Assembly (NCBI GenBank): GCA_963787835.1
Contig: CAWBEI010000003.1
Coordinates: 192,001 to 256,000, forward strand
DNA length: 64,000 nt
Reading direction: 5' to 3'
Source of the DNA: Ignavibacteriota bacterium
Lineage (GTDB): Bacteria; Bacteroidota; Ignavibacteria; Palsa-1295
The notes under the pieces are model-generated. The model searched no databases and was not told the DNA's origin. It saw only the letters and a list, made by a program, of their open reading frames with translations. The first letter of the stretch is position 1. Every line of letters starts with the position of its first letter. Shown here in pieces: positions 104 to 47,921 of this stretch. The position numbers were made by a program, and so were the translations under genes.

Positions 104-311
104 CAGTCCTTTTTCTCTAAATTATGGTTATTGAGCCAACTTTAGTGTCTTCCCAGATAAAACCCCTTCAAATACACTCAATCCACACTTTTTGATCTGG
201 GATGAAATCGCAAATCTCCTATGCAGGCAATTAAGAATTAGAACGGACGAATCCATCTGAGGCTTGCCTGCTAAAATAGTCTATTCGCGATCCAGAGACT
301 ATTGACTGAAT

Positions 312-17289: not shown

Positions 17290-18062
17290 TAGAAATTCTA
17301 CATCTCTCCAAACGCTATGGCACTACGCTCGCCGTCGAGGATCTTTCTCTTGAGATCGGTGCCGGAGAAATTTTCGCGCTGCTCGGCCCAAACGGCGCGG
17401 GGAAATCTTCGACTGTTAAAGTATTGACCGGGCTTTCACGACCGACAACGGGAATTGTTCGCATTGCCGGTTTCGATGTGGTCGAGGAACCCCTCGAGGT
17501 AAAAAATCGAGTCGGTTATGTACCGGAAAATGCGATACTCTATGAGAGCCTCACTGCGGATGAGTACCTTGACCTCGCGGGTACGCTCCGACATATTGAT
17601 AGAAAAAGACTTGCTGAACAGCGTGAAGAGCTTTTCTCTCTGTTCGAACTTTCGAAAGAAGACCGAAAAAAATTACTCTCTGAATTTTCGAAAGGGATGA
17701 AGCAAAAGGTGTTGCTCATCTCCGCTCTCATTCACAATCCGGAAGTATTAATTTTAGATGAACCGCTTTCTGGCCTCGATGCGAATGCCGCGCTCATTTT
17801 TAAAGAGGTGATTCGAAAATTTGCACATGGTACTTCAGGAAAGACCATCTTCTTTTGCTCCCACGTTCTGGATGTTGTTGAGCGGTTATGTGACCGGATC
17901 GCGATTATGAATCACGGTAAGCTTATTGCGATCGGCACACCACAAGAGTTGCTTGAAGAATCCGGCGAGGCGTCGCTCGAACTGGCATTTCACAAACTCA
18001 CCGGTGGCGCGGACATCGAGCGCTCGACCGATGAAGTGATGCGCGCACTTTCGCAGGAGTAA
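17286..18062 (+). CDS. ABC transporter ATP-binding protein
   Basis: Walker A GPNGAGKS, signature FSKGMKQK, Walker B LILDEP, H-loop SH. Confidence 0.95.
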   Translation: MIEILHLSKRYGTTLAVEDLSLEIGAGEIFALLGPNGAGKSSTVKVLTGLSRPTTGIVRIAGFDVVEEPLEVKNRVGYVPENAILYESLTADEYLDLAGTLRHIDRKRLAEQREELFSLFELSKEDRKKLLSEFSKGMKQKVLLISALIHNPEVLILDEPLSGLDANAALIFKEVIRKFAHGTSGKTIFFCSHVLDVVERLCDRIAIMNHGKLIAIGTPQELLEESGEASLELAFHKLTGGADIERSTDEVMRALSQE

Positions 18063-18066
18063 AATC

Positions 18067-28170: not shown

Positions 28171-29583
28171 ATGCCGGTTTCTGAGGAATGCATGATATTG
28201 TTCTGTGAGGATTCTTCTGTGCAAAACAGAGGAACTTCGCGTGCCCCTTCCTTTCAGAATCGCGAAGTAAAAAAGCCTCTTATGGAGGTATTACAGCAAA
28301 ATCTCGGGAATGGGGTCAAGAGCGAGACGTGCGAGTCTCGTGATCTACTCGACCGGGTTCGCGACCTGAGAACCTCATCCTTCGATCCTGTAGTAGTGTG
28401 GTTAGAACAATCTGCTTTGGCGGATTCTGAGCGTCGAATCCGGGAATGCCTCGAGGAGATCGGTGACCGAAGATTATTCGTCGTGATTACAACAACGGAC
28501 GACGATAATAGAATGGGCAACCTTGCAAAGGGCATCCATCCCTACTTTCTGGCAAAACCCACCGGTTCTCTTTCCTCCGAGACACAGTTCTGGCGGGTAA
28601 TAAATGCGCTTGCAGTCGATATTTCTCGCTCCGTAGCTACCGAGAGCGAAGATGATTCGAGACCATCTGTTTTTCTTGCACCCGTCGCAGAGCCTATCGA
28701 GCAATTAGCGCGCAAACTGCGCCATGATCTGGAAAGCCGAGGGTTCAATGTCAGGCCAAAAACGAATTCAGAACTCTTGGATCAGGTGGAAGCACTTTTG
28801 GCAAGAAGCGCATTATCGGTACATCTTTTTGGACAAAGCAATGCAAGTCTTATCGAGCGCGGGGCACAGCAGTCGATGGATGTATTTCGTTCTACGCTTG
28901 CATTCGCAAAAGCTCATCCTGAATTTCGGGTGCTTGGGTGGACGGATGCTCAAGCTTCCGAGGCAGCGACCTCCATGCTCGGCGACCAGATCCTGCGCGA
29001 GTCGAAAGAATTCAGTCTTTCAGCCGAAGTCATTCAAAGTACCTTCGAGGATTTTAAGTCGCTTCTTTATGATCGGTTGGGACAATCGGTGTCTGCATCA
29101 CCTACTATGCCCCCTTTCACTTCTACACCAGTCGTAGGACCAAAGGAAATTCCTGTTGTGGCCGGTATCGCCCACGATGCTCCCGGAGCACAGTTATACG
29201 TCATTTATGACCCGCGCGATGCCGAGGCAGCAAAACCAGTAACGAACTTTCTTCAACATCAGGGTATCGGAGTTCTCTTGCCTGAGTTCCCAACAGAGCA
29301 AAATACGCTCCGTGCCATTCACAATGAGAATCTTCGCCGGTGCGATGGTGTGCTCATTGTCTATGGTGCTGTGCAGGAGCAATGGGTGCGCATGAAACAG
29401 CAAGACCTGCTTCGCGCAGCCGCACTCGGAAGAAAAAAGAATCTATCTGCAAAGGGTGTCTTTTTATGCTCCAACAAGACGGAAGGGAAACTTCGGTTTT
29501 CGGCACCGGACATGATGGTCATCAATGGCTTCGACTCCACAGCCAATCTCGCACCGTTCATCCAGCGACTATCGGCATCGTAA
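28171..29583 (+). CDS. TIR-like/DUF4062-like multidomain protein
   Basis: Two recognisable TIR-like alpha/beta units (SVFLA...LESRGFNV...LSVHLFG; LYVIYDPRD...LRRCDGVLIVYG...WVRMK) and a degenerate N-terminal unit; ends 1 bp before the STAND gene. Confidence 0.6.
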   Translation: MPVSEECMILFCEDSSVQNRGTSRAPSFQNREVKKPLMEVLQQNLGNGVKSETCESRDLLDRVRDLRTSSFDPVVVWLEQSALADSERRIRECLEEIGDRRLFVVITTTDDDNRMGNLAKGIHPYFLAKPTGSLSSETQFWRVINALAVDISRSVATESEDDSRPSVFLAPVAEPIEQLARKLRHDLESRGFNVRPKTNSELLDQVEALLARSALSVHLFGQSNASLIERGAQQSMDVFRSTLAFAKAHPEFRVLGWTDAQASEAATSMLGDQILRESKEFSLSAEVIQSTFEDFKSLLYDRLGQSVSASPTMPPFTSTPVVGPKEIPVVAGIAHDAPGAQLYVIYDPRDAEAAKPVTNFLQHQGIGVLLPEFPTEQNTLRAIHNENLRRCDGVLIVYGAVQEQWVRMKQQDLLRAAALGRKKNLSAKGVFLCSNKTEGKLRFSAPDMMVINGFDSTANLAPFIQRLSAS

Positions 29584-29584
29584 G

Positions 29585-32500
29585 ATGGAAGAAACACCGA
29601 TAGCAACATCCATAGAGACAGCCGGAGGCGGCGGAGGTATGAATCCGTTCCCGGGTTTGCGCCCGTTCGATATTTGGGAGAATTACCTTTTCTTCGGAAG
29701 AGATAAGCAGGTCGATTCACTACTACAGAAGCTTTCCGATCATCATTTTGTCGCCGTAGTTGGAACTTCGGGAAGTGGGAAGTCCTCGCTCGTACGCGCG
29801 GGATTATTGCCCGCGCTCTATGGTGGCTATATGGTATCCGCCGGCTCGACTTGGCATGTTGCTGTGATGCGGCCTGGATCGAGTCCCATTCAAAATCTTG
29901 CCGAAGCGCTTTCTACAGACGATGTTTTTGGCACCACATCCAACAGCAGTTCCCAAACGGAGAGTATAGCTCGCCGTGCGGCAATTTTGGAATCGAGTTC
30001 TCTGGGTCTCGTGCAACTGGTGCGCCAGGCGGCATTGCCTTCGGATGAAAATTTGTTGCTTGTTGTAGATCAGTTCGAAGAACTATTTCGATTCAAGCAA
30101 AATAGGTCGATCGCGGATGCCGCCAATGAAGCATCTGCATTTATCAAGTTACTGCTCGAAGCGGTGCATCAGCGGCAGCTTTTCGATCTATGTGCTTCTG
30201 ACACTTCGAAGCGATTTCCTCGGAGATTGTGCGCAATTCCGCGATCTTCCGGAAGCGATCAACGAAGGCCACTATCTCATTCCGCGTCTGCTTCGCGAAC
30301 AGCAACGCGAAGCGATACTTGGACCTGTTGCGGTCGGTGGCGGAAAAATTTCTCCGCGATTAGTACAGCAGCTTCTCAACGATCTCGGCGATAATCCCGA
30401 TCAGCTTCCGATCATGCAACATGCGCTCATGCGAACATGGGATAAGTGGGAGCACGAGCATGAGCCCGGGGAGCCGATCGACTTCCGGCATTATGAAGCC
30501 ATCGGGCGTATGCAGCACGCGCTCAGCGAGCATGCCGACGAGGCATTCAATGAACTTCCGAACGAACGAAGCAAAATGATCGCGGAGGCAATGTTCAAAT
30601 GCCTCACAATGCGTGGGCCAGATAATCGGGGAATTCGTCGTCCAACGAAAATTGCAGAGATCTGCGCAATTGCTGGTGCAGAGCCGAGCGAGGTGATCGA
30701 GGTCGTCGAATATTTCCGGCGACCGGGCAGATCATTCATTATGCCCCCGCATGGTGTGGAACTTACTCCCGAAACCGTGCTTGATATTTCGCATGAGAGC
30801 TTGATGCGCGTATGGGACCGGCTTGTCAAGTGGGTGGACGATGATGCTGTCTCCGCACAGATGTACCTCCGGCTCGTTGGCTCCGCCGATCTTTATGCAA
30901 AGGAGCAGGCCGGCCTTTGGCGCGACCCCGAATTGCAGCAAGCTGTCAACTGGCGCGATACCCACAAACCAAACGAGGCATGGGCCAATCGTTATTCCAC
31001 TGCATTTGGACCCTCGATGCAGTTCCTGATCGATAGCGTAAAACAACGTGAGCAGGAACATGTTGAAAAACGCCGTCGTCGCCGATTAGTAAATGCGTTC
31101 ATTGTGGCGTTCCTTGCCTTTGCCGGGGTGCTTACCGTCTGGGCACTAACAGAACGAAGTTCGGCTACGCGGAACGCCGCTTCCGCAGAACGCCTTCAGA
31201 AGGTTGCGCAAGATCAGGAACAGAAAGCCGAAAAAAGCGCCATCGTGGCTGACGAGCAAAAACGAAGCGCTATTGCGGCCTCGCACGAAGCGGAAGCTCA
31301 AAAGAAGCTGGCCGAGCAACAGCGCGCCTCTGCACTTTCAGAAAAACTGAATGCTGAAAATTCCCGCGCCGATGCGGAGCGATCGAGTGTTGTTGCAAAC
31401 GAACAACGCACTGCTGCTCAAGCCCAAAGCCATATCGCGGACAGCATGAAAAATCTTGCGGAAAAATCTGCGAGCGATGTATCGCGGCTCCGTTATCTTT
31501 CCATCGCCAAGGCGCTTGCAGTAAAAGCGGAACATCTTCAAACTTCTGACCACGATCTTGTAGGGCTTCTCGCATTACAAGCCTACCGGTTTAGTCATGA
31601 GAATGGCGGTTCGGCAATGGATCCCGATATTTTTGGCGCCCTGCATTCGGCGGATAAATTATTGAATGCATCCGCACTCTCACTTCAAGGGCCGCATGGG
31701 AGCAATATTCGTTCCGAACTCTTTCGAAACGATCAGGAACTTGTCTCCGCCAGCACCGATGGTAAGATCGTGGATTGGGATGCGGGTTCACCAAAGGCCA
31801 TTGGATCGCACTCGGCTTCTCGTACACTCGCGCTCAGCCCCGATGGTGCAACGATCTGTGCAGCGGGCAACGATGGCGTTCTTCATCTTTATTCCTTGAC
31901 GAACGGGTCTGTCTCCAATGTTCCTGTTGGAGTTTCCTATGTGGTGCAAGCTCATTATATTGATAATGCTTCCATAGCGCTTTTGAGTAACGATGGACGT
32001 ATTCACATTGTGAATCCCGCGAATGGAAGGGAGTCATCCATCCTTGCTTTGCCGGGGAACATTCGTTCCTTCGATCTAAACAGCAATATCCACGAGCTTG
32101 CCGCCGGTGACGAACTGGGAACGATCGGTATCTGGAATTTAACATCTCTGAATGGGCTAGCATCCAGAACCAGCTCCGTGAATGGCGCTATTTCTGCAAT
32201 CAATTTTAGCCGTGACGGCAAAATGCTTGCAGCTGGCACGCAGAAGGGCGCGATCTACCTTTGGAACACATCCGGCGAGCAGGGGCAATCGCTCCCAAAA
32301 CCGCAAGTAGCAACAACAACCGGTGAGCCGATTCACGCGATCGCCTTCAGTCCTGACGGCAGAATGTTGGCCAGTGGCAGTTCGAATGGCACGGTGCGCC
32401 TTTGGAATCCGGATCGTATGGCGGAGATACCCATCACGCTTGCCGATAACTCTGCATGGATGTGGTCGCTGGCCTTCAGCCCGGATGGCAGCACGCTTGC

Positions 32501-32672
32501 GGCCTCCAGTGCGGATAAATCCATTCATCTCATTCCAGTGCAGCCAGATGCAATTGTACGGCAAGTTCAACAGAAGATCGGACGAAATCTGACCCATAAG
32601 GAATGGGATCAATTCATAGGCTCTGATGTGCCTTATGCGGAAACGATTCCTGAGTTAGGAACGAAGGAATAA
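29585..32672 (+). CDS. nSTAND1-type NTPase - TM - coiled coil - WD40 repeat protein, split by a 1-nt frameshift near 30180
   Basis: NPFPGLRPF, FFGRD, Walker A GTSGSGKSS, Walker B VVDQFEELF, LTLRSDF, LPIMQHAL, ISHESL; TM after RRRRR; WD40 repeats AFSPDG; removing one T at 30180-30183 joins the frames into about 1028 aa. Confidence 0.88.
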
Positions 32673-35062: not shown

Positions 35063-38000
35063 TTACCTTGATCGTTGTGCGGCTTCATTTTGCTTGCGAA
35101 TTCGCCGGCAGAGCGTCGTGATCGCACCGCGCGCGATCTCGATGTTATCTATCATCAGATCGTAGAACACTTCCCGATCGAGCTTGAGGAGGGTCGTTTC
35201 TTCCAGTGCCGTTACGGATGCGGATCGAGGCTCGGGATCCAACAGCGCCATTTCACCTACCACATCCCGTGCGTGTAATTCGGAAAGTTGATGTTCGCCA
35301 TCATGAACGCGCACACGCCCCTCGACAATGATATACAGGCAGCTTCCTGTCTCGCCTTTCTCGATGATTCGCTCCCCAACAGAGGCATGAACTTCCTCCA
35401 GCGCCTGCGCAATATGAGAAAGCACCGGATCGGGCGTTTCGTGAAACAAATCGACCGTCTTTAATAAAATGACGCGTTCAAATAAATGTGGCATAGGTTC
35501 CTCGTCCTTGGACTTGTAGTAAAAATGAGCGACCGCAAGGGTCCAGGGTTCGTAAAAATGGTCATCATCGCGCAGGAGATTGTTCCATGCTATCTCGTGG
35601 GAGCCGTGTTCAAGATCCTGTGGAATGATGTCAGCCAGCGTGGTATGGTCGGTAATATGTGCTGAATGCTTAGCTCCATCATGATTGGTCCTTCTAAGAA
35701 AAAGCGTTGCTTCGAGCAATGCAACCACTTCTTTCGCAAGATCCGGAGCGAGGATCTGATCCAGAACTTCAAATGCGTTGGCATGATGCAGATGTTCGCC
35801 GATGAGCAGGCTGTCACGCACCCGGCGTAGCGTTACAGGATCATATTCAAGCTCCAATAGCATCAGCACGCGATCTGCCGCTTGTGCGACCTCATGCGAA
35901 AGCGTGCTTCGAAATAATTCCGACACTGGAAGATTTGTTGAATGTCCATTTGTGGATTCAAGAGAATGAATGATGGTAATAAGCTTGCGGACGCGCCGAA
36001 GTTCCTCAGCTATGATACGTGTGATGATATCAGAATCGTTTATTCGGATACCATTGGTCGTAAGCGCATGCAACGCAGCCAATCGCAGGGTTCCCAGCAC
36101 TCGCGGTGCTTCGTCGATGGTACCACCTACGGTTCCACCGCTGGACGGATTCGGCCAGGTTAACAGTGCGACCAATAACTGAATGGATTGTTCGGAGAAT
36201 GGTGCGTGCTCACCCTTACTCCAATGACCGAGCAGGCGCGCAATTCGTGGTAAGCGGGCACTTCCGACATGTCCCTCCTCGATGTGGTGCGTGAGGTGCG
36301 GCAGCACCGCATTGCCAAAGGCCTGCAGAGCATGCTCGATAAGGATGAGCGTTTGCCGAGTGGTTGCGGGTTGTAGATACAGATCGAGTATTGGTTCGAT
36401 AAGTTGCGGATGAGCAACCAGCGCGGATGCTCGAATCGCAGCAAGCCGCACTTCCGAATTCTCGTCTCGCAGAAGCGCAAGAAGGGAATGATAGAACTGA
36501 CGAACCCCAACTCCGCCTATGATCTTCGCGGCAGAAACGCGCACGCTGGGATCGGTGCTGTGCGCCATGGACTGCACGAATTCACCAGCCACAAGCACCC
36601 CGTCGATCCCTTTATGCTTGATGAGCCCGGCAAGCAGCCCTTCTCGCACGGGGAGTCGTTCATCATCGAGCCACTGCTTCATATCTTCGGCCTCAAGTTC
36701 CGGAGAAACGGCAGAATAGACCCGCAACGTTTGGCCCAGCATCGTTCCATCGTCGTGATTCAGATCGATTTTAGCGTTCGTTAACACAGCATCTAAAATG
36801 GTCTTAGCGCGAAGGCGTTCGGCGGCAGAAAATTCAAGATCATCCACGCGGCGTAGGGCAGCGATTCGAACGGACAATTCACCGTGTGCGAGCAAGTTGG
36901 GTAAGGCGTCGATGAGGAACGTATGTTCGGTCGGAGGAATAAGATGCAAGGCATATTCCACTTCCATCGGATGCGCGCTATGCAGCTTTTCTAAGACCAT
37001 GCTTCGCGCGGCATGATCCCAGACCAGCGCTGATGACATAAGCCGCCGGTGCTTCAACGCCCGGAGCACTGTTCTCTTGTATTCGCGGTCGAACCAAAGA
37101 AGTGTTCCCGCCCACGCTGCAAACACCCCAAGCATTACAAAACTGATCCCACGCAACGAGAAACCAATAGAAACGGAGAGCACATATAACAGGATGGACG
37201 CTGCACCTAACGCAAGCGGTTCAATGATTCCACCAATGGCTTGATGCCCGCGATGCTGAAGGTGTTTCGAGAGCGGTTGCATGGCAATGGCCAATGCAGG
37301 AACCTGAACGGCCTCCGACCACAACTCGACAAGCAACATTCCACCAATGAACGCCCAGATCATGGCGGGTGCGGCACCTGCGACCGATGCAGAATTTGCG
37401 CTAAAGATTAGTCCAGCAACGGTGGTAATGAGTAGTCCGATGGGCAGCACGATGATCGTTCTTGCGAGTCCGAACTTACTGAAGAGTCGCCCAACGACAC
37501 CGACTTTGAGCAACAGACTCGCCAGTTTTGCTACTCCGAGGAACAGTCCGATGAAATTTGCAACTTGTGTGAGGCTTTCTTTTCGTTCCTCGATCTCTCG
37601 AAGAAATCCAAAGTCGATACAGGTCGTTGCAAAGAGCGCCAGGAACGCAACCAGAGACACACTTGCGATATACGTATCCCGCCAAATGAACGTGAGTGAG
37701 TTTTGCTTCCCGTCATGATGCTTCGGCTGTTCGAACGCCGTTCTGGAATGATGTTTTTGTTTCCCATCTGTATGCATTGCCATCAGATGCGAGTAATTTG
37801 AAATGATTTGCTGTAGCACAAAGACACTTATCGCTGTTCCACCGGCGGAGAGAATCAACAACTGCGGTACTTTCAAGAACGAGGTCAATAGCGGGACAGA
37901 AAAATAGCCGAGTATTTTTGCAAGGAACGATCCTGAATCTATCAAACTGAACAGCCGCTTCCCTTGCCGGACATCGAAAAGATGCATGGGAAGCCCCCAA

Positions 38001-38440
38001 AACTCACTTTGAGCTACGAAGATCATAATACGGGACCACACCAATAGCCCAAACGCAATGGCGAGCGGGGGAATCTGCAAGGCGTATTCCTCCATTGCGT
38101 AGAAGGCGACCGTTCCGGCCACGAGCAGGATCAGCGCAAGCCGGAGCACTTGAAATTGACCGATCGCATGCTCTAAGCGTTCGGAGCTATACCCGATCAG
38201 AAGTTCAAGAACCGCAGCCGCCGCAAACGCGCACGGAAGATACACGATCGGAAAGGAATCAAGAAAGATCGGAAGTGCTGCTGAGATCAGATACGCAACC
38301 CCGACCCCGAGAAAGAACGAGTGCGTCCAGAGCAGCGCCACGGGGCGCATCTCATGCGAACGCAAGTTCAGGGTTTGAAGAACTACTCGCTTACCCCAGG
38401 ATGTTCGAAAAGAGCCTTGACGATTTGGAGATGAATCCAT
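35063..38440 (-). CDS. Npt/TLC-like nucleotide translocase (MFS fold) - HEAT repeats - cNMP-binding domain fusion
   Basis: About 12 TM with FWG...FDVRQGKRLFSLI motif; HEAT repeats (LLRDENSEVRLAAIRA); C-terminal cNMP domain with GEMALLDPEPRSASV; start ATG 38440. Confidence 0.82.
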   Translation of the reverse strand: MDSSPNRQGSFRTSWGKRVVLQTLNLRSHEMRPVALLWTHSFFLGVGVAYLISAALPIFLDSFPIVYLPCAFAAAAVLELLIGYSSERLEHAIGQFQVLRLALILLVAGTVAFYAMEEYALQIPPLAIAFGLLVWSRIMIFVAQSEFWGLPMHLFDVRQGKRLFSLIDSGSFLAKILGYFSVPLLTSFLKVPQLLILSAGGTAISVFVLQQIISNYSHLMAMHTDGKQKHHSRTAFEQPKHHDGKQNSLTFIWRDTYIASVSLVAFLALFATTCIDFGFLREIEERKESLTQVANFIGLFLGVAKLASLLLKVGVVGRLFSKFGLARTIIVLPIGLLITTVAGLIFSANSASVAGAAPAMIWAFIGGMLLVELWSEAVQVPALAIAMQPLSKHLQHRGHQAIGGIIEPLALGAASILLYVLSVSIGFSLRGISFVMLGVFAAWAGTLLWFDREYKRTVLRALKHRRLMSSALVWDHAARSMVLEKLHSAHPMEVEYALHLIPPTEHTFLIDALPNLLAHGELSVRIAALRRVDDLEFSAAERLRAKTILDAVLTNAKIDLNHDDGTMLGQTLRVYSAVSPELEAEDMKQWLDDERLPVREGLLAGLIKHKGIDGVLVAGEFVQSMAHSTDPSVRVSAAKIIGGVGVRQFYHSLLALLRDENSEVRLAAIRASALVAHPQLIEPILDLYLQPATTRQTLILIEHALQAFGNAVLPHLTHHIEEGHVGSARLPRIARLLGHWSKGEHAPFSEQSIQLLVALLTWPNPSSGGTVGGTIDEAPRVLGTLRLAALHALTTNGIRINDSDIITRIIAEELRRVRKLITIIHSLESTNGHSTNLPVSELFRSTLSHEVAQAADRVLMLLELEYDPVTLRRVRDSLLIGEHLHHANAFEVLDQILAPDLAKEVVALLEATLFLRRTNHDGAKHSAHITDHTTLADIIPQDLEHGSHEIAWNNLLRDDDHFYEPWTLAVAHFYYKSKDEEPMPHLFERVILLKTVDLFHETPDPVLSHIAQALEEVHASVGERIIEKGETGSCLYIIVEGRVRVHDGEHQLSELHARDVVGEMALLDPEPRSASVTALEETTLLKLDREVFYDLMIDNIEIARGAITTLCRRIRKQNEAAQRSR

Positions 38441-38468
38441 TATCGAACGATAACAAGCATAGAACGCG

Positions 38469-39086
38469 ATGCGTCCCAGCACCATGATTGTTCCTCCGCA
38501 TTCCCTCGTACCCCAGATCGAAACATTCTCACGCGAGATCATCGCCACATTACCGGCCGGATATACCTACCATTGTATCGAACACACCGAGATGGTCGTG
38601 AGGCACACAACGATGATAGCGGATTCGATCCAGCTAACCGAAGAGCAGACGGCACTGCTCATCATGGCGGCCTGGCTTCACGATGTGGGGTTTCGCATCC
38701 GGTATAAGGGGCATGAAAGAGATAGCTGCGTTGCTGCACGAGAAAAGCTTGCGGATGTACTAACTCCCGAGGATATGGCGACCATTGAAGAAGCCATTAT
38801 GGGAACGGAGATTCCTCAGCGCGCGACCCATCCTATCTCACAAGCGCTTTGCGACGCCGATCTGTTGTACTTAGGTGGCGATCACTTCTTTGATTGGAGC
38901 GCGCGGCTGCGCGAAGAGCATCAGAAGGTTCTTGGACGTGAATACAGCGATCAACAATGGATCGAATTTAACATTGACTTCGTCCGCAATCATACATTCT
39001 TCACAGCATTTGCTCGGGAACATTATGGCGAGGGTCTTTTAAAAAATCTGGATGCGTTGGAACTGATGAGAGCGGAGTCCCTCTGA
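38469..39086 (+). CDS. HD-domain metal-dependent phosphohydrolase
   Basis: YHCIEHT, AAWLHDVG, GHERDS, LCDADL. Confidence 0.88.
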   Translation: MRPSTMIVPPHSLVPQIETFSREIIATLPAGYTYHCIEHTEMVVRHTTMIADSIQLTEEQTALLIMAAWLHDVGFRIRYKGHERDSCVAAREKLADVLTPEDMATIEEAIMGTEIPQRATHPISQALCDADLLYLGGDHFFDWSARLREEHQKVLGREYSDQQWIEFNIDFVRNHTFFTAFAREHYGEGLLKNLDALELMRAESL

Positions 39087-39306
39087 TCGAAGGCTTCTCC
39101 GACTTGGAAGCCCCTCTCACATGTGTTGTTTGGAGCAAAGCATCTTGGTTATTTCACACAACAATCATTTGAAGTATTGAGGAGGAAGGTTTACTCACTG
39201 GAATCACAGACCGGCTCATGTCGGATATTTGTAATATTTGTCAGTCAACTAATGTCAAAAGATAAACTATTAAATATCCATAAACAGTTGATTATATTTA
39301 ACTTAA

Positions 39307-39328
39307 GCGGAGGACCTGGGATTCGAAC
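39307..39328 (-). repeat. att copy of the tRNA-Ser(TGA) 3' end
   Basis: GCGGAGGACCTGGGATTCGAAC matches 47839-47860 with one mismatch. Confidence 0.88.
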
Positions 39329-39456
39329 GTCAAGTGCCGGAAGACAAACGATACCATTCTTCTTTACGTCTCTATGTTGCTACTATCCATTTGAACCATG
39401 GGTCCGGCTTGTGAATTTTGACAAATCGAACTTTTTTGATCTATTCAACTCTTTGC

Positions 39457-40044
39457 ATGACGATGGACTCGCGAACCGATCTCGACCTCCTAACTGCAAT
39501 TCAGGAACGCGCAGATAACAGCGCGTTGGGAGCTCTCTACGACCGTTATGGGCGAAAGGTCTATGTATTGGCCTATGGTATTTTGCGGTGCAAACCGGAC
39601 GCAGAGGACATACTGCAAGAGGTATTTGAGCGCGTTTGGAAGAAAAGCCACACCTATAATAGTACGCTTGGTAGCGTGAAAAGCTGGCTGCTCCGTATCA
39701 CACATAATCGTTCTATAAATAGGCTTAAAGCGCGTGCAATACGGGCAACCCATTCGGGCTACACTTCAGAGGGTGCGTATGGAGATTCCTTTACCGGCAG
39801 GATGCCAGAGAACATTTTAGATGCTTCCGAGATCGACATGGATTTCGACATTGGGATATTTGTTCGCAAAGCACTTGACTATTTACCCGAAGAGCAACGG
39901 CGGCTGATCGAACTGGCATTCTTCAAAGGGCTATCCCATTCGGAAATTGCTGAAACTGAGCAGATTCCGCTTGGCACCGTGAAGACTCGGATACGCAGCG
40001 GCATCGCTCGATTACGAACGGAATTAAAATTTTTAAGAACGTAG
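39457..40044 (+). CDS. ECF sigma-70 factor (RpoE/SigK-like)
   Basis: ALYDRYG, AEDILQEVF..VW, SWLLRITHNRSIN, region 4 GLSHSEIAE...PLGTVKTRIR. Confidence 0.93.
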   Translation: MTMDSRTDLDLLTAIQERADNSALGALYDRYGRKVYVLAYGILRCKPDAEDILQEVFERVWKKSHTYNSTLGSVKSWLLRITHNRSINRLKARAIRATHSGYTSEGAYGDSFTGRMPENILDASEIDMDFDIGIFVRKALDYLPEEQRRLIELAFFKGLSHSEIAETEQIPLGTVKTRIRSGIARLRTELKFLRT

Positions 40045-40149
40045 CGAACATTTGCGATAAAAATAGTAATAAGGAACAATACAAGAATCCGAGAGCATAG
40101 AGATAGCTGTAATAAAAAGAATAAGCTCTCGATCAGCGATCAGCACATA

Positions 40150-40782
40150 ATGGCGGAACAGAAACAACAGAGCAATGGAAACGGTCAAGACCCTTTAATG
40201 GGCAAAGAGCCACTAATGGGCAAAGAGCCACGCATCTCCAATGATGCGTTGCTCGGCTATCTTCAGGGCGAACTTCGGCTTCCGGACATGGAAGCGTTCG
40301 AGGCCGCCTCTGTAAATGATCCTGAACAAATGGAGTCGATTCGAGTCTATTCCGAATTGCTCGATTCCTTAACGGATCTATTGCCTGAACCTGAGATGCC
40401 TATCGGAGACGATATGCGGACGCGGATAATGTCTATTGCAGACTCCAAGCCGATCTCCCAAGTCATTCGTGCTCACCAAGGCCAGTGGATCGATTCTGGT
40501 ATGCCGGGATTTGAGTTCAAACTGCTGTATCAGGATCCGGAATCGAAGAAGAGTACGGTCCTCGCTCGTATCGCGGCAGGTGCACGAATGCCGCATCATC
40601 GCCATCAAGGCACAGAGGAATGTCTTATTATCGAAGGCAGCTTATGGACGGATGGCGTTCTGCTTGAAGCCGGAGATTTTATCGTGACGCAGGATCAAAC
40701 CGAGCATGAAGATACGTGGTCGCCTCATGGAGCGCTGGCACTTATAAAAACATATCTGGAGGATGAAATATTATCGAGTTAA
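40150..40782 (+). CDS. anti-sigma factor with ChrR-like cupin domain
   Basis: Follows the ECF gene; N-terminal LLGYLQGEL anti-sigma helix; cupin HHRHQGTEECLIIEG...GDF...H. Confidence 0.8.
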   Translation: MAEQKQQSNGNGQDPLMGKEPLMGKEPRISNDALLGYLQGELRLPDMEAFEAASVNDPEQMESIRVYSELLDSLTDLLPEPEMPIGDDMRTRIMSIADSKPISQVIRAHQGQWIDSGMPGFEFKLLYQDPESKKSTVLARIAAGARMPHHRHQGTEECLIIEGSLWTDGVLLEAGDFIVTQDQTEHEDTWSPHGALALIKTYLEDEILSS

Positions 40783-40804
40783 CCATTTTAGCTTTGTTTC
40801 TGAG

Positions 40805-40836
40805 AAAGGCCGGAGAAAACTCCGGCCTTTTGTATT
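40805..40836 (+). terminator. intrinsic terminator
   Basis: AAAGGCCGGAG-AAAA-CTCCGGCCTTT plus T-rich tail. Confidence 0.8.
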
Positions 40837-40842
40837 TTGATA

Positions 40843-40867
40843 AATCCAGTGACCCAATGTAGGTGTA
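40843..40867 (+). promoter_or_regulatory. candidate ECF promoter for the DUF4331 operon
   Basis: AATCC-N16-TGTA about 75 nt upstream of ATG 40942; resembles RpoE/SigK-type ATCC...CGTA promoters. Confidence 0.35.
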
Positions 40868-40941
40868 TTAGTCAGAGCAATCCTCTTTTTTATCGTCAGG
40901 CAAAAGAGTGGAAAGTCTTTTAACTAATCACAAACATTTCT

Positions 40942-43026
40942 ATGCGTACACTTGCTAACTCATTCCGACTGCTCTTACCCTCAGCGGCGGTGCTTGCAGT
41001 AGTTCTCTTTGCCGCTCCTCAGGCCCAGGCGTCGAGCCATCGCGAAGCGCCACTGATCTCGAACGATCCCCTTGCGGATAACACGGATCTCTATGCCTTC
41101 GTATCTCCGGACGATCCGAATATGGTCACGATCATCGCGGACTACATCCCGTTTGAAGCTCCGCAAGGCGGACCGAACTTCGCAACGTTCGGGACAAACA
41201 TTCATTATGAAGTCCACATCAAAAATAATGCGATGACGGCAGGTGATGACATCACCTACCGGTTCACATTTTCCCAAACGAATCAGGATCCGACCACTTT
41301 CTTCAATATTCGTCTCGGAAAGCAAAATCTGATGACGACGTATGATTGCGAGAAATCAACCGATGGTGGAAACACCTGGACGACGATCGTGGCAAATGGA
41401 ACGGTTCCACCGCCGAACATCGGACCGCGTTCGATCGAGGGTGCTGCTGGACTTAATACGCCTTACGCGACCTTGATGCAAAATGCCGTTGCGAACGCTT
41501 CTGGCACTGGCGGCGAGACGATCTTTTGCGGACCGATCGATGACCCATTCTTTGTCGATTTAGGTGGAATCTTCGATCTAGGCGGATTTAATAAGCATGG
41601 CAAGGACGGTCTTGCCGGTTTCAACTGCCACACGATCGCGCTCAAAATTCCTATCTCTTCGCTTCAGAAAGATGGAAAGACTGTTTCGGAGGCTGCTAAT
41701 ATCTTAGACGGTAATTTCGTGATCGGCGTGTGGGCTTCTGCTTCGCGCATGAAATTCCGCACGATCAATGGTGATGGCACATACACCGATAGCGGTTCCT
41801 ATGTGCAGGTCAGCCGTCTTGGAATGCCACTTACGAACGAAGCCATCATTCCGATCGGAATGAAAGACAAGTGGAACTCTGGAACTCCCTATACCGATGC
41901 ATCCGGTGCCTACAATGCTAATTTCGTAAACCCGGAATTAGCACTCTATGTCGGAAATGGCGCGTATAGCGCTGCCGTTCCAGGACTTGCAAATCTTCGC
42001 CTCGATACCAATTCGCTCGGCGGAGGCTTCGATTTCCGAAATGGAAAGATAGGACTTTATGGCCTCTATGGTGCTGCGGCAACAAAGGGCACTGCCCTTG
42101 ATACTGCAAGTTTCGGGAAGATCCTTCTGGAACCAAATGCTCCCCGTTCGGTCGATCTACTGCCGATCTTCTACACCGGCGTGCCGAATATCGCGCCGTA
42201 TCAACTTGCAACCGGCAAAGCAGGTAATCCACTCGCAGCAGGTAAACCGTTCATCAATAATTTCCTGCCGACGCTCGGCGATATGCTGCGATTGAACATG
42301 GCCGTTCCCGCTACACCGCGAAACAGCCCTGATTTCAGCAGCGAAGGCCTCATTCAGGCGGCTGTGCTTGGCTTGACCGATTCACGCTTCAATGTGAATG
42401 CCACACTTCAGGATATTCCCAACATGGATGGGTTCCCGAACGGGCGACGCCTGGAAGACGATGTTACGACCATCGAAATGCAAGCCGTCGGCGGCCTGGT
42501 CTTGAATGCTATCGGCCTCTGGACGGACGATTATGTGCCCGGCTCATCGAAATCGCCGGTAACTCCATACCTTCTTGGCAAATTAGGCTGGGACGCCGGC
42601 GTAACGAAAAACGATGTACCGCTCCAAGCAACGTTTCCATACGTTGCCGCACCGCATCGTGGTTCGCTCGGACTAATGACCGATACTTCCACGATCGTCA
42701 TGGGAACTGCGGATGTTCACAATATCCCAGAGTCCATTGGTATTCATGCACCGGGCGGTCAGTTCACCGGTCAGAATTATCCGAATCCTGCGACAAGCCA
42801 ATCGACAACATTCCAATTCCATATCTCCGCCGTAGCTCCGGTGAGTGTAACGATCGTCGATGTCAATGGGATGCAGGTTGCGACGGCTTTCGCGCAACAG
42901 TGCACTCCTGGCGATTACACCTCCGCGTGGCAACTCCCACAAGGGCTTGCCTCCGGTGATTATTTTGCGGTGCTCTCGGTGGATGGGGAGCAAGTTTCGA
43001 CAATGCGATTTGTCGTAAACAAATAA
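40942..43026 (+). CDS. DUF4331 family protein with T9SS type-A CTD
   Basis: AQA-SSHREAP...DNTDLYAF, DDPFFVDLG, QVSRLGMPL, GFPNGRRLEDDV, FPY; CTD QNYPNP...ASGDYF. Confidence 0.9.
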   Translation: MRTLANSFRLLLPSAAVLAVVLFAAPQAQASSHREAPLISNDPLADNTDLYAFVSPDDPNMVTIIADYIPFEAPQGGPNFATFGTNIHYEVHIKNNAMTAGDDITYRFTFSQTNQDPTTFFNIRLGKQNLMTTYDCEKSTDGGNTWTTIVANGTVPPPNIGPRSIEGAAGLNTPYATLMQNAVANASGTGGETIFCGPIDDPFFVDLGGIFDLGGFNKHGKDGLAGFNCHTIALKIPISSLQKDGKTVSEAANILDGNFVIGVWASASRMKFRTINGDGTYTDSGSYVQVSRLGMPLTNEAIIPIGMKDKWNSGTPYTDASGAYNANFVNPELALYVGNGAYSAAVPGLANLRLDTNSLGGGFDFRNGKIGLYGLYGAAATKGTALDTASFGKILLEPNAPRSVDLLPIFYTGVPNIAPYQLATGKAGNPLAAGKPFINNFLPTLGDMLRLNMAVPATPRNSPDFSSEGLIQAAVLGLTDSRFNVNATLQDIPNMDGFPNGRRLEDDVTTIEMQAVGGLVLNAIGLWTDDYVPGSSKSPVTPYLLGKLGWDAGVTKNDVPLQATFPYVAAPHRGSLGLMTDTSTIVMGTADVHNIPESIGIHAPGGQFTGQNYPNPATSQSTTFQFHISAVAPVSVTIVDVNGMQVATAFAQQCTPGDYTSAWQLPQGLASGDYFAVLSVDGEQVSTMRFVVNK

Positions 43027-43115
43027 GATCCATCCTCTATCTCGCTTGGTTGCGCGTGGCATCTCGGATGCCACGCGCACCCTTCCGAAAAAATAACCAT
43101 ATCATTTTTATTGCA

Positions 43116-44456
43116 ATGAATCGTAGATCAATGCTCTGGATCGTTCCGATCGCAGTAGTAGCAATCGCTTCCATCGTGTTCCTTGCTTGGCCTTCTAAAA
43201 AAACGGCGCTTGCTATGCCGGATCTCCTGCCCCGACCTGGAGAAACAACCCCTTCTGCGGAATTCTTGAAAAGCGAGGCGGATGTAAAAAAATACCGCAT
43301 AGAGCTTGCTGAACATCCAGATAAAAGTGAGGATTATGTTAAGCTTGCCGAGATTTATTTGCAAGAGTCGCGGGTGACGGCGAATCACCATTTCTACATT
43401 CCAGTGGCTTCCGCGCTTCTCGACGAAACGCTTCGTCGGGACACGAATAATTTCGAGGCGCTCGTCACGAACGCGGGACTTCAAATGACGCTGCATCAAT
43501 TTCAGAAGGCCGATGACATGGTCACCAGCGCTATTCGTCAAAATCCGTATAACGCCACTTCGTATGGTGTGCTCTGCGATGCGAATGTTGAGCTTGGGAA
43601 TTATCATGAAGCGGTGACCGCATGTGACAGCATGATGTCCAAGCGCCCCGATCTCCGTTCCTACGCACGAGCATCGTATTTGCGTCAGCTTATGGGAAAG
43701 GACTCCTCGGCCATTCAGGCCATGCTGCTGGCCGCCGATGCCGGTCTTTCCGGAAGCGAGAGCCGATCCTGGGCGCTCTATCAGCTTGGTAACCTTTTTA
43801 TTCAAGCTGGCAAGTTCGACACGGCCGCGTTTATTTTCAATGGGATTTTAGAAGAGCGCCCTGGTTATGCCTATGCAAAGAGCGGACTTGCAATGATCCA
43901 CCTTGCGAAGGGCGAATATACGGATGCGATCCGCGAACTTGCATCGGCCATGCAGGCATTGCCGGAACATATTTTTCTCGAACAGCTTGCCGACGTTTAT
44001 ATCGCAATGGGAGATACCGCGAATGCGCGGACGTTAGAAACCAGGGTATTCGCCGCATTCGATCAGCATGAACAGGATGGCTGGAATGTCGATCGCGAAT
44101 ACGCGCAGTTTGCCGCCGACCATAATGTGCGATTGGGCGAAGCTGTCACTCGAGCAGAACGGGAATGGAAACGCCGCCCGAATAATGCGGATGCCATTGA
44201 AACATACGCGTGGTCGCTCTTGAAAAATGGCGATGCTCAAAAAGCGGAAACCATCATGGAGTTCGGATTGAAGTCCGGGATCGTCACACCGACGATGCAC
44301 TATCATGCAGCAGTTATTTATGCGTCGTTGGGCAGAACTGCCGAGGCTCAGGAAGAATGGCGATCCGCCATCCTTCGAGTGCCGTGTGTAAAACCGGCGC
44401 TGGTGCGTGACGCGAAATCGTTCCTGACGAACAGGGAACGCCTTTCCATGAACTAA
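43116..44456 (+). CDS. membrane-anchored tetratricopeptide repeat protein
   Basis: N-terminal TM, multiple TPRs (DANVELGNYHEA, AWSLLKNG); start ATG 43116. Confidence 0.85.
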   Translation: MNRRSMLWIVPIAVVAIASIVFLAWPSKKTALAMPDLLPRPGETTPSAEFLKSEADVKKYRIELAEHPDKSEDYVKLAEIYLQESRVTANHHFYIPVASALLDETLRRDTNNFEALVTNAGLQMTLHQFQKADDMVTSAIRQNPYNATSYGVLCDANVELGNYHEAVTACDSMMSKRPDLRSYARASYLRQLMGKDSSAIQAMLLAADAGLSGSESRSWALYQLGNLFIQAGKFDTAAFIFNGILEERPGYAYAKSGLAMIHLAKGEYTDAIRELASAMQALPEHIFLEQLADVYIAMGDTANARTLETRVFAAFDQHEQDGWNVDREYAQFAADHNVRLGEAVTRAEREWKRRPNNADAIETYAWSLLKNGDAQKAETIMEFGLKSGIVTPTMHYHAAVIYASLGRTAEAQEEWRSAILRVPCVKPALVRDAKSFLTNRERLSMN

Positions 44457-44467
44457 CGCGCATACCA

Positions 44468-44962
44468 ATGCTCTCGTTGATCTTTGCACGGATGTTTTTA
44501 CTATGTGCCTTTCATGCGGTGCACATTAGTTACGGTGATTTTTCCGTCACGCAAAATTCAGTGCATGACCGATCATCCGTGCTGAGTGGTAGTTTTACGT
44601 TTTACAAAGACGATTGGGCGAAGGCAACCGAGCATTGGTTCGGTCGATCGATGACAAACGAGCCGAAGGCAGTACAGGACTGGATGGAATCCGAATATCT
44701 CAAGGGGCATGTCCGCTTTTGGTTGGATGGCTACAGCACTCCGGTTCACTTCGATCTGCGGGTAAAAGAAGATGCGGCGCAATCGATCACTTACGAGTTT
44801 ACCGCTCCAGTTTCCTCCGATCATCATGTGGTCATCATAGATTCGCGCGCGGTGCTTTCTGAATATAGCGATCAGATGAATTTGATGACCGTGAAAGTTC
44901 GCGGCAAATCGACGAACATTATTTTTACAAGCGATCATACAACCTCAATCATAAAACTTTAA
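44468..44962 (+). CDS. DUF6702-like secreted protein
   Basis: Short signal, then HAVHISY; C-terminal SDQMNLMTV; precedes HupE/UreJ. Confidence 0.6.
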   Translation: MLSLIFARMFLLCAFHAVHISYGDFSVTQNSVHDRSSVLSGSFTFYKDDWAKATEHWFGRSMTNEPKAVQDWMESEYLKGHVRFWLDGYSTPVHFDLRVKEDAAQSITYEFTAPVSSDHHVVIIDSRAVLSEYSDQMNLMTVKVRGKSTNIIFTSDHTTSIIKL

Positions 44963-44967
44963 CGATC

Positions 44968-45525
44968 ATGTTCACACAATTTATCCAGATCGGGTTCCAG
45001 CATATTCTCGAGGGGTATGATCACTTGCTTTTTCTTACGGCACTTGTGCTCGTAAGCCGCCGTTGGCAGGATCTACTAAGTGTTATTTCCGCATTCACGA
45101 TCGCACATACAACGACGATCGTGCTGTGCGTGTTCGGCGTACTCTCGCTTCCGTCCCTTCTTACAGAATCACTTATTGCGGCCTCGATCGCTTATGCAGG
45201 AATTGAAAATATGTTTCGAAAAAATTTCGATACGCGTTGGGTGATCGCCGGAGCATTCGGGCTTATTCATGGCGCGGGGTTTTCCGGGCATCTTGTCAGT
45301 GTGTTACAACCGTTGCTTGGGACGGGCCAAGTATGGGGACCGATCTTCGGTTTTACCTTTGGCATCGAAATGGGGCAGCTTGCTGTGATCACGCTCATCT
45401 ATCCCGCAGTGATGCTGGCTCGTTATTTCGGGAGAGAGCGGGTTTTTGTGCGAGCATTCTCCGCGCTTATTGCGATGGCAGGTACCGCCCTTCTAATAAT
45501 GCGGCTCTCCGGCTCTTCTTTGTGA
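44968..45525 (+). CDS. HupE/UreJ family membrane protein
   Basis: GFQHILEGYDHLLFL, AFTIAHT, ESLIAASI, FGLIHGAGF, GIEMGQL. Confidence 0.9.
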   Translation: MFTQFIQIGFQHILEGYDHLLFLTALVLVSRRWQDLLSVISAFTIAHTTTIVLCVFGVLSLPSLLTESLIAASIAYAGIENMFRKNFDTRWVIAGAFGLIHGAGFSGHLVSVLQPLLGTGQVWGPIFGFTFGIEMGQLAVITLIYPAVMLARYFGRERVFVRAFSALIAMAGTALLIMRLSGSSL

Positions 45526-45573
45526 TCGGATCGAACATCCATTCGACGCAATGGGCTGTATAACATTCGTCAC

Positions 45574-47631
45574 ATGATACGAATGTTAATCCTCCGAACC
45601 TCCTTCGCAGCTCTATTCATTTCCGCGGCTCTTTCAGGGTTATGGAATCCGGCACACGCCCAATCCAAAGTAGACACGATCCATGAAAAGGAGCAAGTAG
45701 TCACCGTCACCGCAGAGCGCCCGCTTTCTGCGGCCTCGGACAAAAGTTTCCGCGATTCTGATTTTGAGCTTCGACCACGTAACTCCGCGCAAGATATGCT
45801 CCGGCTCGTTCCGGGACTGGTGCTTGCACAGCATGCGGGCGGCGGAAAAGCGGAACAGATCTTTTTGCGCGGATTCGATGCCGATCACGGAACCGACGTG
45901 AATATCTCCGTTGACGACGTTCCAGTTAATATGCTTAGTCATGGACATGGGCAAGGTTATGCCGATCTTCATTTTATCATACCAGAAACGATCCAGGAAG
46001 TAGATGTGGTCAAAGGTCCGTATTCTCCTCGCTATGGCGATCTTGCAACGGCAGGGGTGATTGCCTTCCAAACGAAAGATTCGCTCAAATATAACGAGTT
46101 GAAACTTGAAGGTGGGTCCTTCGATGAATATCGAGCGCTCGCGCTCATCAAAGGCCCATCTTCACAAACGATCCAATCCTATTTTGGCACCGATCTATTC
46201 TATACGCGAGGACCGTTCGACGTTGCCCAGGATTTTCATCGTCTTAATCTGTTCGCAAAGACCGATGCTGCGCTCAGCGACGATGCAAAACTTTCCGCGA
46301 GTCTTTTTTCTTTTAGTTCCTCCTGGAATGCGAATGGCCAGATTCCGGAGCGCGCCGTCGCAGATGGCCTCATCGACCGTTTCGGTTCGCTCGATTCAAC
46401 AGAAGGCGGCGCAACATCACGCACCACCGCCAACATCACATACACATCAGGAGGAGAATCCCCTCTGACACTTACCGCCTCTTACACCGATTATCATTTT
46501 CGGCTGTTTAGCGATTTTACTTTTTATCTTGTTGATACCACTCAAGGAGACGAAGTGGAACAGACAGATTCACGCACCCTGCTTGCGTTTCGGGGGGAAC
46601 GAACACTTCCCTGGATCTTAGGCGACGCCATCATGAATACAAAGATCGGTGTCAGCACACGAAGCGATGATATTCAAGCTGCCATCTATCATGATTCTGC
46701 GCGCGTCCGACTCAACAATGTAGTAGATGCGGCCATTCAGGAGCGGGAAACAGGGCCATATATTCAGCAGGAGATCGGGCTTGGATGGATTCAATTCATT
46801 CTTGGGCTTCGCGCAGACTATGCAACGGTCGATGTACAGAATTTGCTAAATTCCGGCGCACAGCCAAACGGTATCAACCAGCAGATCATCCTTTCGCCGA
46901 AAGCGAATGCAAGCATTCCAATAAGCAATGACGCCACAGCATTTCTGAATTTTGGCTATGGGTTTCATTCCAACGACGCGCGTGCCATTGTGCAATCTCC
47001 GGGAATTCCGACCTTACCGCGAGCGCTTGGCAGCGAGATCGGTTTACGGTATGGCGAACCTTCGGAATTCTTTTCCTGCTCATCCTCGCTATGGTATCTT
47101 TACCTTCAAAGCGAACTTGTCTGGGACGGCGATGAAGGAACACTTATTGCACAAGGAAGTACACGTAGGGAAGGCATCGATCTCGAAGCACGCATTCGTC
47201 CAACAGAATGGCTCACGTTCGGGGGGGATGCAACGATTTCCGAGGGGCGGTTCGTCGATTCTGCAGTTGGCAATAATTACATTCCTCTTGCACCAAATTT
47301 TACGCTTACGGGAAATGCCGTCGCCAAGTGGGATGATTTTTCCGCTGCCTTGCGCTTGAGACACGTCGGCGACCGACCTGCCAATACCGACAATTCTATT
47401 GTTGCAAAGGGGTATTCGATTTTCGATCTTTCACTCACCTATCATACAGGGCCCTATGAATTGTACGCAAACGTCGAGAACGTATTCAACACAGTTTGGA
47501 ACGAGGCTCAATTCGCGACCGTAAGCCGTATTTATGTTCACGGCGTGCTTGAGGCAAATCCGGTGGATGATCTCAGCTTTACGGCTGGAACCCCAATCTC
47601 CGTAAGGACAGGAATCGCCTTTAGTTTTTGA
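45574..47631 (+). CDS. TonB-dependent receptor
   Basis: Plug QHAGGGKAEQIFLRGFDADHGTD...SHGHGQGYADL, VVKGPY; barrel strands; C-terminal F. Confidence 0.92.
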   Translation: MIRMLILRTSFAALFISAALSGLWNPAHAQSKVDTIHEKEQVVTVTAERPLSAASDKSFRDSDFELRPRNSAQDMLRLVPGLVLAQHAGGGKAEQIFLRGFDADHGTDVNISVDDVPVNMLSHGHGQGYADLHFIIPETIQEVDVVKGPYSPRYGDLATAGVIAFQTKDSLKYNELKLEGGSFDEYRALALIKGPSSQTIQSYFGTDLFYTRGPFDVAQDFHRLNLFAKTDAALSDDAKLSASLFSFSSSWNANGQIPERAVADGLIDRFGSLDSTEGGATSRTTANITYTSGGESPLTLTASYTDYHFRLFSDFTFYLVDTTQGDEVEQTDSRTLLAFRGERTLPWILGDAIMNTKIGVSTRSDDIQAAIYHDSARVRLNNVVDAAIQERETGPYIQQEIGLGWIQFILGLRADYATVDVQNLLNSGAQPNGINQQIILSPKANASIPISNDATAFLNFGYGFHSNDARAIVQSPGIPTLPRALGSEIGLRYGEPSEFFSCSSSLWYLYLQSELVWDGDEGTLIAQGSTRREGIDLEARIRPTEWLTFGGDATISEGRFVDSAVGNNYIPLAPNFTLTGNAVAKWDDFSAALRLRHVGDRPANTDNSIVAKGYSIFDLSLTYHTGPYELYANVENVFNTVWNEAQFATVSRIYVHGVLEANPVDDLSFTAGTPISVRTGIAFSF

Positions 47632-47839
47632 CGAGGTGTTGGAGAACCATTAATTAATTCTTTCCAATATGTGGTCTGCATGGGCAAATCGGTAGACCAT
47701 TTTTATCCCCACAATCCCGAGATGAGCAAAAGCATTGACTCGACAGAATTTGTTGCCACATTGTTGCCAAACAAATTAAATTAGAAAATTTTGAAAGGCA
47801 ATAAATCATTGATATTGAATGACTTACGGCGATTTTCTG

Positions 47840-47921
47840 CGGAGGACCCGGGATTCGAACTCGGAAGCCCTTGCGGGCGGCAGTTTTCAAGACTGCTGCA
47901 GTACCATTGTGCCAGTCCTCC
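47840..47921 (-). tRNA. tRNA-Ser(TGA)
   Basis: Reverse complement: acceptor GGAGGAC/GTCCTCC-G, anticodon arm GCAGT-CT TGA AA-ACTGC, variable arm GCCC-GCAA-GGGC, T-loop TTCGAAT; one A-C mismatch in the T-stem. Confidence 0.93.

Follow-up and report, generated by a model that had tools for sequence, protein, structure and literature searches.

How did a block of DNA that ends in a copied piece of a tRNA gene, and that encodes no enzyme able to excise or integrate it, come to lie beside its target gene, and by what route did it last move? The question is raised by an 8.55 kb block (39307..47860) in a 64,000-nucleotide stretch of contig CAWBEI010000003.1 from an Ignavibacteriota bacterium; this whole stretch is called the window. 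The block carries seven genes, from an extracytoplasmic function (ECF) sigma factor to a TonB-dependent receptor, between the 3' end of tRNA-Ser(TGA) and a displaced copy of that end. The genome holding the window (G000) is a 3.57 Mb, 97.9% complete assembly. Other genomes bear further G-numbers, and L-, C- and X-numbers denote loci or stretches, contigs and sequencing runs, respectively. That the repeat is a real integration signature of one tyrosine-integrase element family is a conclusion much surer than any single route of transfer.

Repeat and ends of the block

The following features define the ends of the block.

47839..47921, minus strand: tRNA-Ser(TGA), the target gene (ARAGORN)
47839-47860, minus strand: core of the tRNA-side attachment (att) site, the last 22 nt of tRNA-Ser(TGA), which begin in the T-arm and end just beyond the acceptor stem
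39307..39328, minus strand: distal att core, a displaced copy of the tRNA-Ser(TGA) 3' end (21/22); homology to the genus-mate G002 starts exactly here

The target gene is the sole tRNA-Ser(TGA) that ARAGORN found in G000. The two 22-mers share the same orientation and 21 of 22 positions, and their starts lie 8532 apart. A search of the window at up to three mismatches returns these two copies and no others (0/100 shuffles gave any match), and so does a search of the 3.57 Mb genome at up to four. A chance origin of the repeat is ruled out by the shuffles and by this genome-wide uniqueness. The left copy lies downstream of tRNA-Ser(TGA) in the orientation typical of integration, and so fits a displaced 3' fragment. 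In the available text of PMC4383910, islands that target tRNA genes are described as leaving a 3' tRNA fragment downstream, in the same orientation as the tRNA. The arrangement sought by the Islander method, an intact tRNA with a same-orientation terminal fragment whose 3' piece lies downstream, is what is found here. The observation is thereby confirmed, with both ends mapped precisely. With a G+C content of 49.8%, against 50.1% for the G000 genome, the block carries no compositional signal.

Between the two copies, Pfam and NCBIfam models detect no recombinase and place all seven genes in other families. A loose tblastn search with the cognate integrase described below returns no integrase remnant from window positions 19,000-48,000 (best E 5.6), and no third core copy occurs in window positions 19,000-39,300 at up to six mismatches. 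The first-pass annotation, made from the letters of the window, had proposed both the bracketing repeat and the lack of a recombinase between its copies, and each claim is borne out at the coordinates given. It had also raised the prospect of a 22-mer frequent throughout the genome; both genomic copies stand at the ends of the block.

Attachment arms and the cognate integrase

Both cores are flanked by candidate att sequences.

47747..47838, no strand: tRNA-proximal att arm, 92 bp, at constant spacing to the core in 12 aligned sites of relatives
47751-47758 and 47762-47769, no strand: two TGTTGCCA direct repeats in the proximal arm, likely integrase arm-type sites
47802-47814, no strand: match to the integration host factor (IHF) consensus in an AT-rich stretch of the proximal arm (consensus scan)
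39329..39343, no strand: distal att flank of ~14 bp, also present in the two G002 cassettes and resembling that of the integrase-bearing form
39237..39306, no strand: arm-like AT-rich stretch outside the unit, abutting the distal core and differing from the 92-bp arm; IHF-consensus match at 39281-39293

The window holds three matches to the IHF consensus, two of them at most 40 bp from the two cores, and the 3.57 Mb genome holds 124. The stretch at 39237..39306 is likely the end of an older tandem neighbor carrying HD and cNMP-HEAT genes; it has no match at E < 0.02 in 34 other family genomes.

The combination of arm and core recurs in 7 of 35 family genomes, all seven in this genus (reversed control 0), and in 7 metagenome stretches. 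Among the latter, four sites adjoin a complete tRNA-Ser(TGA) and the other three are bare-core junctions. The combination has no match in viral contigs, and scans of GTDB genomes for the distal flank pattern and for the integrase gave none either, in a set from which near genomes may be missing. Distal ends fall into two forms. L116, L113, G013 and L118 have a distal arm cluster at core +141 to +168, built from the repeats of the proximal arm with some of them inverted. This cluster is present in 4 of 9 distal ends and missing from G000, both G002 cassettes, G010 and G004. On the distal side of the G000 block, the ~14 bp att-like flank gives way to an ECF-promoter-like motif and the sigma gene, and the distal end in G010 is cut at another point, ~100 bp in. 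The block has a tRNA-side att site that looks complete and a distal site that consists of the core and ~14 bp, without the arm cluster.

In L116, L113 and G013, a tyrosine integrase gene follows the arm cluster directly inside the distal core; L118 has the cluster and no integrase after it. The L116 integrase has 387 aa, matches PF00589 and PF13102 (SAM_5) and contains catalytic-type motifs, and the partial copies in L113 and G013 are 76% (over 92 aa) and 70% (over 162 aa) identical to it. From this shared position, the L116-type integrase is likely the cognate enzyme and the repeats its arm-type sites. This supports the claim of the first-pass annotation that the block is a tRNA-3'-end island of a tyrosine-integrase family. 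The best matches of the enzyme in a plasmid collection are site-specific integrases of Bacteroidales (31-40% identity). Related integrases (25-56% identity) in other members of the genus adjoin fragments of tRNA-Arg and tRNA-Gln in the same layout. Separately, L118:27-600 is a very small unit composed of an arm, a core, the distal arm cluster and a second proximal-type arm ~435 bp past the core, without an integrase, and in its sequence layout it resembles a microCIME (a small form of the elements introduced below).

G000 encodes three tyrosine recombinases, namely XerD (over cut-off), an XerC-like protein (best model XerC, under cut-off) and a 423-aa integrase, and G002 and G003 have a Xer pair as their sole tyrosine recombinases. 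The first-pass annotation had proposed searching the genome for a tRNA-Ser-targeting integrase. The sole candidate helper, the non-Xer integrase at C4:18224-19492, sits at tRNA-Ser(GCT), is 26% identical to the cognate enzyme and belongs to its own 22.5 kb unit, whose ends lack TGTTGCYA; it is unlikely to serve the block. Mobilization as a Xer/dif module was also rejected, since the ends are a tRNA fragment and arms that flank a dedicated integrase elsewhere; no dedicated dif scan was made. The unit around the 423-aa integrase (G000:C4:17757-40415; L001, L002) is itself island-like. Beside the integrase it carries a 44-nt copy of the tRNA-Ser(GCT) 5' half with ~150 bp of similar upstream sequence, and within it lies the sole serine-resolvase locus of G000, split in two pieces.

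Probable exchange of the block between species

G002 is a genus-mate of G000 with a backbone nucleotide identity of 69-79%. It carries the block, also without an integrase, between pckA-tRNA-Ser and a perfect copy of the core. The two versions are 93.3% identical over 9226 bp, with homology starting exactly at 39307, and their left neighbors differ. Differences at four-fold degenerate sites amount to 1.5-31% in the seven cargo genes and to 57-74% in 10 backbone genes. Because the cargo values are far below those of the backbone, the exchange most likely postdates the split of the two species by a long time, and the block would already have been integrase-free.

Other sites of the family hold other contents. 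In tandem with the block, G002 has a second cassette of 8.0 kb, which carries different cargo and shares the arm and the short distal flank. A third copy of the core accompanies it, and it too lacks an integrase. G010 contains a 22 kb integrase-free unit with Kdp-like cargo, a name read from sequence, and G003 and G009 have the arm with still other cargo. In addition, cargo at tRNA-Ser(TGA) in G009 (L046), G003 (L092) and G010 (L095-L096) matches clusters that G000 keeps elsewhere, at C4:185-198 kb adjoining tRNA-Gln(CTG) and in a Kdp-like region at C2:1274-1288 kb (names again read from sequence). In G009, a tRNA-Arg(TCG) lies immediately inside the arm. L106 (G021:C80) has two tRNA-Ser(TGA) copies, both near-complete and 10 kb apart, one of them preceded by an arm-like motif, and L107 (G042:C16) has two that are 455 bp apart.

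Competing explanations for the block

Our preferred reading, held with slightly better than even confidence, is that the block is a decayed tyrosine-integrase element similar to cis-mobilizable elements (CIMEs), which kept its tRNA-side arm and last moved passively in tandem with a helper that has since gone. Its arm and core are as in L116, L113 and G013, and its ~14 bp distal flank is similar to theirs, which is what derivation by deletion from an integrase-encoding element would leave. The proposal of the first-pass annotation that the island had lost its integrase fits well, given relatives that pair the same att sequences with an integrase. The 387-aa integrase would cross over in the T-loop region and restore the tRNA. 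An ancestral element may have lost the integrase and arm cluster through a deletion ending ~14 bp from the distal core, with the ECF operon taking their place. The remnant would then have travelled within a tandem array, excised and integrated by a neighbor's integrase acting on the remnant's intact tRNA-side arm. Because the integrase lies at the tRNA-distal end in this element family, a distal neighbor could supply the enzyme and the missing arm, and the block the tRNA-side arm. Later loss or decay of the helper would have stranded the remnant, and recombination between tandem arms could have reshuffled its arm. In G000 the block is probably immobile until a helper arrives. Tandem arrays are indeed seen, without a helper in G000 or G002.

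A number of observations weigh against this reading or against a simple, self-contained unit. The variable region spans ~28 kb (~19.7-47.8 kb), and the 8.5 kb unit is only its tRNA-proximal part. In G000, ~28 kb separate the tRNA from a shared backbone flank, the ABC genes at window 16432-19719; in G002 and G009 this flank likewise lies beyond the array. The 8.55 kb island of the first-pass annotation is thus bounded as described, by the tRNA-Ser 3' end and its copy, and is one part of a larger variable region. In X5, a peat run of depth 9 from one study, one contig has the HD and ECF genes adjoining, with the repeat absent, so that a relative in part shows the synteny without the repeat that the annotation had named as contrary evidence. 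The cognate integrase was not found in G000, G002 or G003, which are incomplete assemblies, and no relaxase of PF03432 or PF01076 was found in the five genomes tested, G000 included. Mobilization in trans, also suggested at first, is accordingly weak as a present-day state; the block does appear to have moved between species without an integrase of its own. No circular junction appeared in runs X1, X2, X5 and X6 (four of the six listed), whose coverage is low and patchy so that absence proves nothing, and neither these runs nor the genomes showed a precise empty tRNA site; G014, G005, G001, G008 and G011 have a tRNA-Ser(TGA) without the arm, but unrelated genes downstream. The CIMEs of S. salivarius, as the available text of PMC7563491 has it, are always farthest from the target gene, and the block is nearest. 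The comparison with G002 adds further difficulties. The arms differ at 23 of 92 positions and the adjacent TonB gene at 17 of 2058 (99.2% identity), which counts against purely site-specific transfer because the arm should travel with the cargo. The cores in each genome match the host's own tRNA variant, and cargo identity is mosaic, from 77 to 99.6% per 250 bp. Mosaic cargo and the discordance between arm and cargo indicate that homologous recombination or gene conversion acted on the block.

These last observations lend weight to a less probable alternative. Here each lineage would have kept an old, relict att scaffold, and homologous recombination following the uptake of DNA would have carried the cargo between species, with the conserved arm repeats and tRNA core as landing pads and no integrase in the last move. 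At the arm repeats, identity to G002 drops abruptly, from 99% to 75%; a similar split is reported for the vcr islands of Dehalococcoides, with an integration module at 75% and cargo at 99.4% identity (PMC3146451, available text). The cores are host-type, and the two G002 arms resemble each other (77/92) more than either resembles the G000 arm (69 and 70/92). Cargo identity is, as noted, mosaic. ComEC is present in 5/5 genomes tested, and says little, as it is also present in 10/14 control genomes. RecA acts poorly on diverged DNA and on homology of ~20-100 bp, and the 69-79% backbone identity and landing pads of ~20-100 bp would be such poor substrates. Furthermore, homology stops exactly at the distal core, beyond which the left neighbors of the two genomes differ. 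It appears unlikely that the block is instead a purposely minimal cassette, for which a core and one arm suffice and which is excised and integrated alone by the integrase of visiting elements acting in trans. Under that explanation, it would be natural that the block (cassette A, in G000 and G002) and the second G002 cassette (B) keep the same ~14 bp distal flank and a full proximal arm, that cassette A stands nearest the tRNA, the position of the latest arrival, and that integrase-free units outnumber integrase-bearing ones among the sites seen. However, no cognate integrase was found in G000 or G002, the arm cluster beside the integrase of relatives is missing here, the G010 distal end is cut elsewhere, as random decay would give, and the four low-coverage runs held no circle.

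The X5 contigs bear on a further explanation, in which a larger and older block (cNMP-HEAT, HD, ECF to TonB) later underwent an insertion and a deletion that left the distal repeat as a scar. They cover 36532-47318 at ~88-91% over most pieces; the HD-ECF junction measures 44 letters, against 327 in G000, with ~91% identity in the HD gene and in the cupin-DUF4331 stretch, and the extent of the variable region would suit a larger block as well. We read this junction as the decay of a boundary between two tandem units, because the stretch 39237..39306 resembles the arm of another element, the HEAT-HD pair occurs alone, and coreless arms are common; the reverse order, in which the repeat-less arrangement came first, is conceivable. 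The pair itself stands just outside the distal core.

35063-39086: divergent pair of genes for a membrane/HEAT/cNMP-binding protein and an HD protein

The pair is patchy in the genus. G014, G003 and G004 have it at different loci, unaccompanied by the operon (in G004 right beside tRNA-Ser(CGA)), and it is probably a second mobile module. With the ECF-TonB block of G002 cut exactly at the repeat beside a different neighbor, and arm copies without cores in G003, G010 and L112 showing that junctions in arrays commonly decay, a scar is very improbable. Decay of an integrase-bearing element followed by passive movement thus stays our preferred reading, and two details stand out as odd, namely the one-armed ends of two cassettes and an arm that diverged while the cargo did not.

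Cargo genes

The cargo is laid out as follows.

39346..39370, plus strand: ECF-promoter-like motif AAAC-N17-CGTC upstream of the sigma gene, the sole pattern match in 39301-47900
39418..40044, plus strand: ECF sigma factor, SigK-like (Pfam Sigma70_r2 and r4_2; under every specific NCBIfam cut-off)
40150..40782, plus strand: ChrR-type cupin protein (PF12973; TIGR02451 under cut-off)
40942..43026, plus strand: DUF4331 protein with a C-terminal type IX secretion system (T9SS) sorting domain (PF14224, E 1e-124; TIGR04183)
43050..44456, plus strand: tetratricopeptide repeat (TPR) protein (Pfam scan)
44468..44962, plus strand: DUF6702 protein (PF20420)
44968..45525, plus strand: HupE/UreJ-family membrane protein (PF13795)
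45574..47631, plus strand: TonB-dependent receptor (PF07715; TonB receptor models under cut-off)

The motif at 39346-39370 is a possible autoregulatory promoter of the sigma gene, and the cupin protein is a likely anti-sigma factor. The seven genes thus likely form an operon under an autoregulated ECF/anti-sigma pair, encoding a secreted DUF4331 protein and an uptake system of the outer membrane. The predicted substrate is possibly a metal because the operon includes a HupE/UreJ member. X6 is an RNA run, but its low-depth contigs are no evidence of expression.

Of the 14 other genomes of the genus, one (G002) was found to have full-length DUF4331, against 8 of the 10 genomes from sister genera. 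In the stretches examined around the ECF-cupin-DUF4331(-TPR/TonB) clusters of those sister genera, no tRNA-Ser or arm was found. Because DUF4331 is rare in the genus and common in sister genera, away from tRNA-Ser and arm, the operon is probably native to the family and circulates as island cargo within the genus. Literature searches returned no paper on DUF4331 and nothing relevant on the HupE/UreJ-ECF-TonB-TPR combination, in a collection that leaves out most subscription papers.

Other features of the window and genome

Window positions 28171-32672 hold the gene of a TIR-like protein (under cut-off) and, after it, an nSTAND1 NTPase-WD40 gene. The latter is split over the overlapping frames 29525-30394 and 30117-32672, which indicates a frameshift or an assembly error. 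A tRNA-Ser(CGA) lies at window positions 19-104, and no fragment copy of it was found in G000. The genome also contains dispersed short repeats and palindromes of a REP-like kind, for example at C5:291592-291659 and C2:786189-786576. The set includes a 19-mer in at least 8 places, a 17-bp tandem unit and a GC-rich palindrome family.

Relation to known elements and significance

Integrase-free islands at tRNA ends are already known and common, and the block adds another case. The closest parallels are the CIMEs of Streptococcus (Pavlovic 2004, Bellanger 2011), which are described together with tandem accretion in the available text of PMC5704250 and PMC7563491. Like the CIMEs described there, the block is att-bounded, contains cargo only, without genes for integration or transfer, and lies in a tandem array at a gene 3' end, and its 8.5 kb fall within the classical CIME range of 1.2-13 kb. 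It is, as a CIME is defined, devoid of integrase, relaxase and conjugation genes. Unlike CIMEs, only one att site of the block looks complete, the distal arm cluster having been lost, and there is no integrative and conjugative element (ICE) or integrative and mobilizable element (IME) in its array or, for the relaxase families tested, in G000.

The ssrA islands of Dehalococcoides, 15 of which lack integration modules, offer a second parallel. As far as the available text of PMC3146451 shows, these islands, like the block, lie in tandem and are marked by a copied t(m)RNA 3' end of 20-22 bp, with the crossover placed close to the T-loop. They also have a conserved motif adjoining the repeat, and cargo that is almost identical next to a diverged target-proximal segment. 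The target here is tRNA-Ser, not tmRNA, and the block's family has a single tyrosine integrase at the distal end, whereas Dehalococcoides has a multi-gene integration module beside the site (PMC3146451). Islands of the Islander type resemble the block in pairing a tRNA with a correctly oriented 3' fragment and in a size near the 10 kb peak, by the available accounts in PMC4383910 and PMC12424338. Islander and TIGER, however, require an integrase gene (same accounts); none lies inside the block, which would be filtered out. The Bacteroides elements NBU2/IntN2 and MTnBf8 also target a tRNA-Ser 3' end (PMC8816746, PMC13597742, available text); the cognate enzyme proposed here has a SAM_5 domain and, as noted, its best matches in Bacteroidales. 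An IME or NBU-type element has its own integrase and a relaxase or oriT. The block, unlike NBU2 and MTnBf8, has neither a mob gene nor an integrase, and PF03432 and PF01076 are absent from G000. Tycheposons share tRNA targeting and cargo with the block, but carry integrases, according to the available part of bioRxiv 2020.12.28.424599. No literature on this island family in the lineage was found under the lineage name searched, which was a guess, in a collection outside which most subscription papers lie.

The block exemplifies islands that are missed by finders requiring an integrase, and it provides att anatomy at sequence level, together with a candidate integrase, for a poorly studied lineage of soil and peat. 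It is also evidence that an integrase-free unit recently crossed a species gap. More speculatively, and with a good deal of doubt, the genus may run a cassette exchange at tRNA-Ser(TGA), in which stacked, one-armed, integrase-free cassettes are traded between species by a transient integrase, each adopting the att arm and tRNA end of its host on arrival. If so, the cassettes exchanged would be the ECF/DUF4331 operon, the Kdp-like operon and sets of secreted proteins, and the array would behave as an integron does, except that the genome retains no integrase for it.

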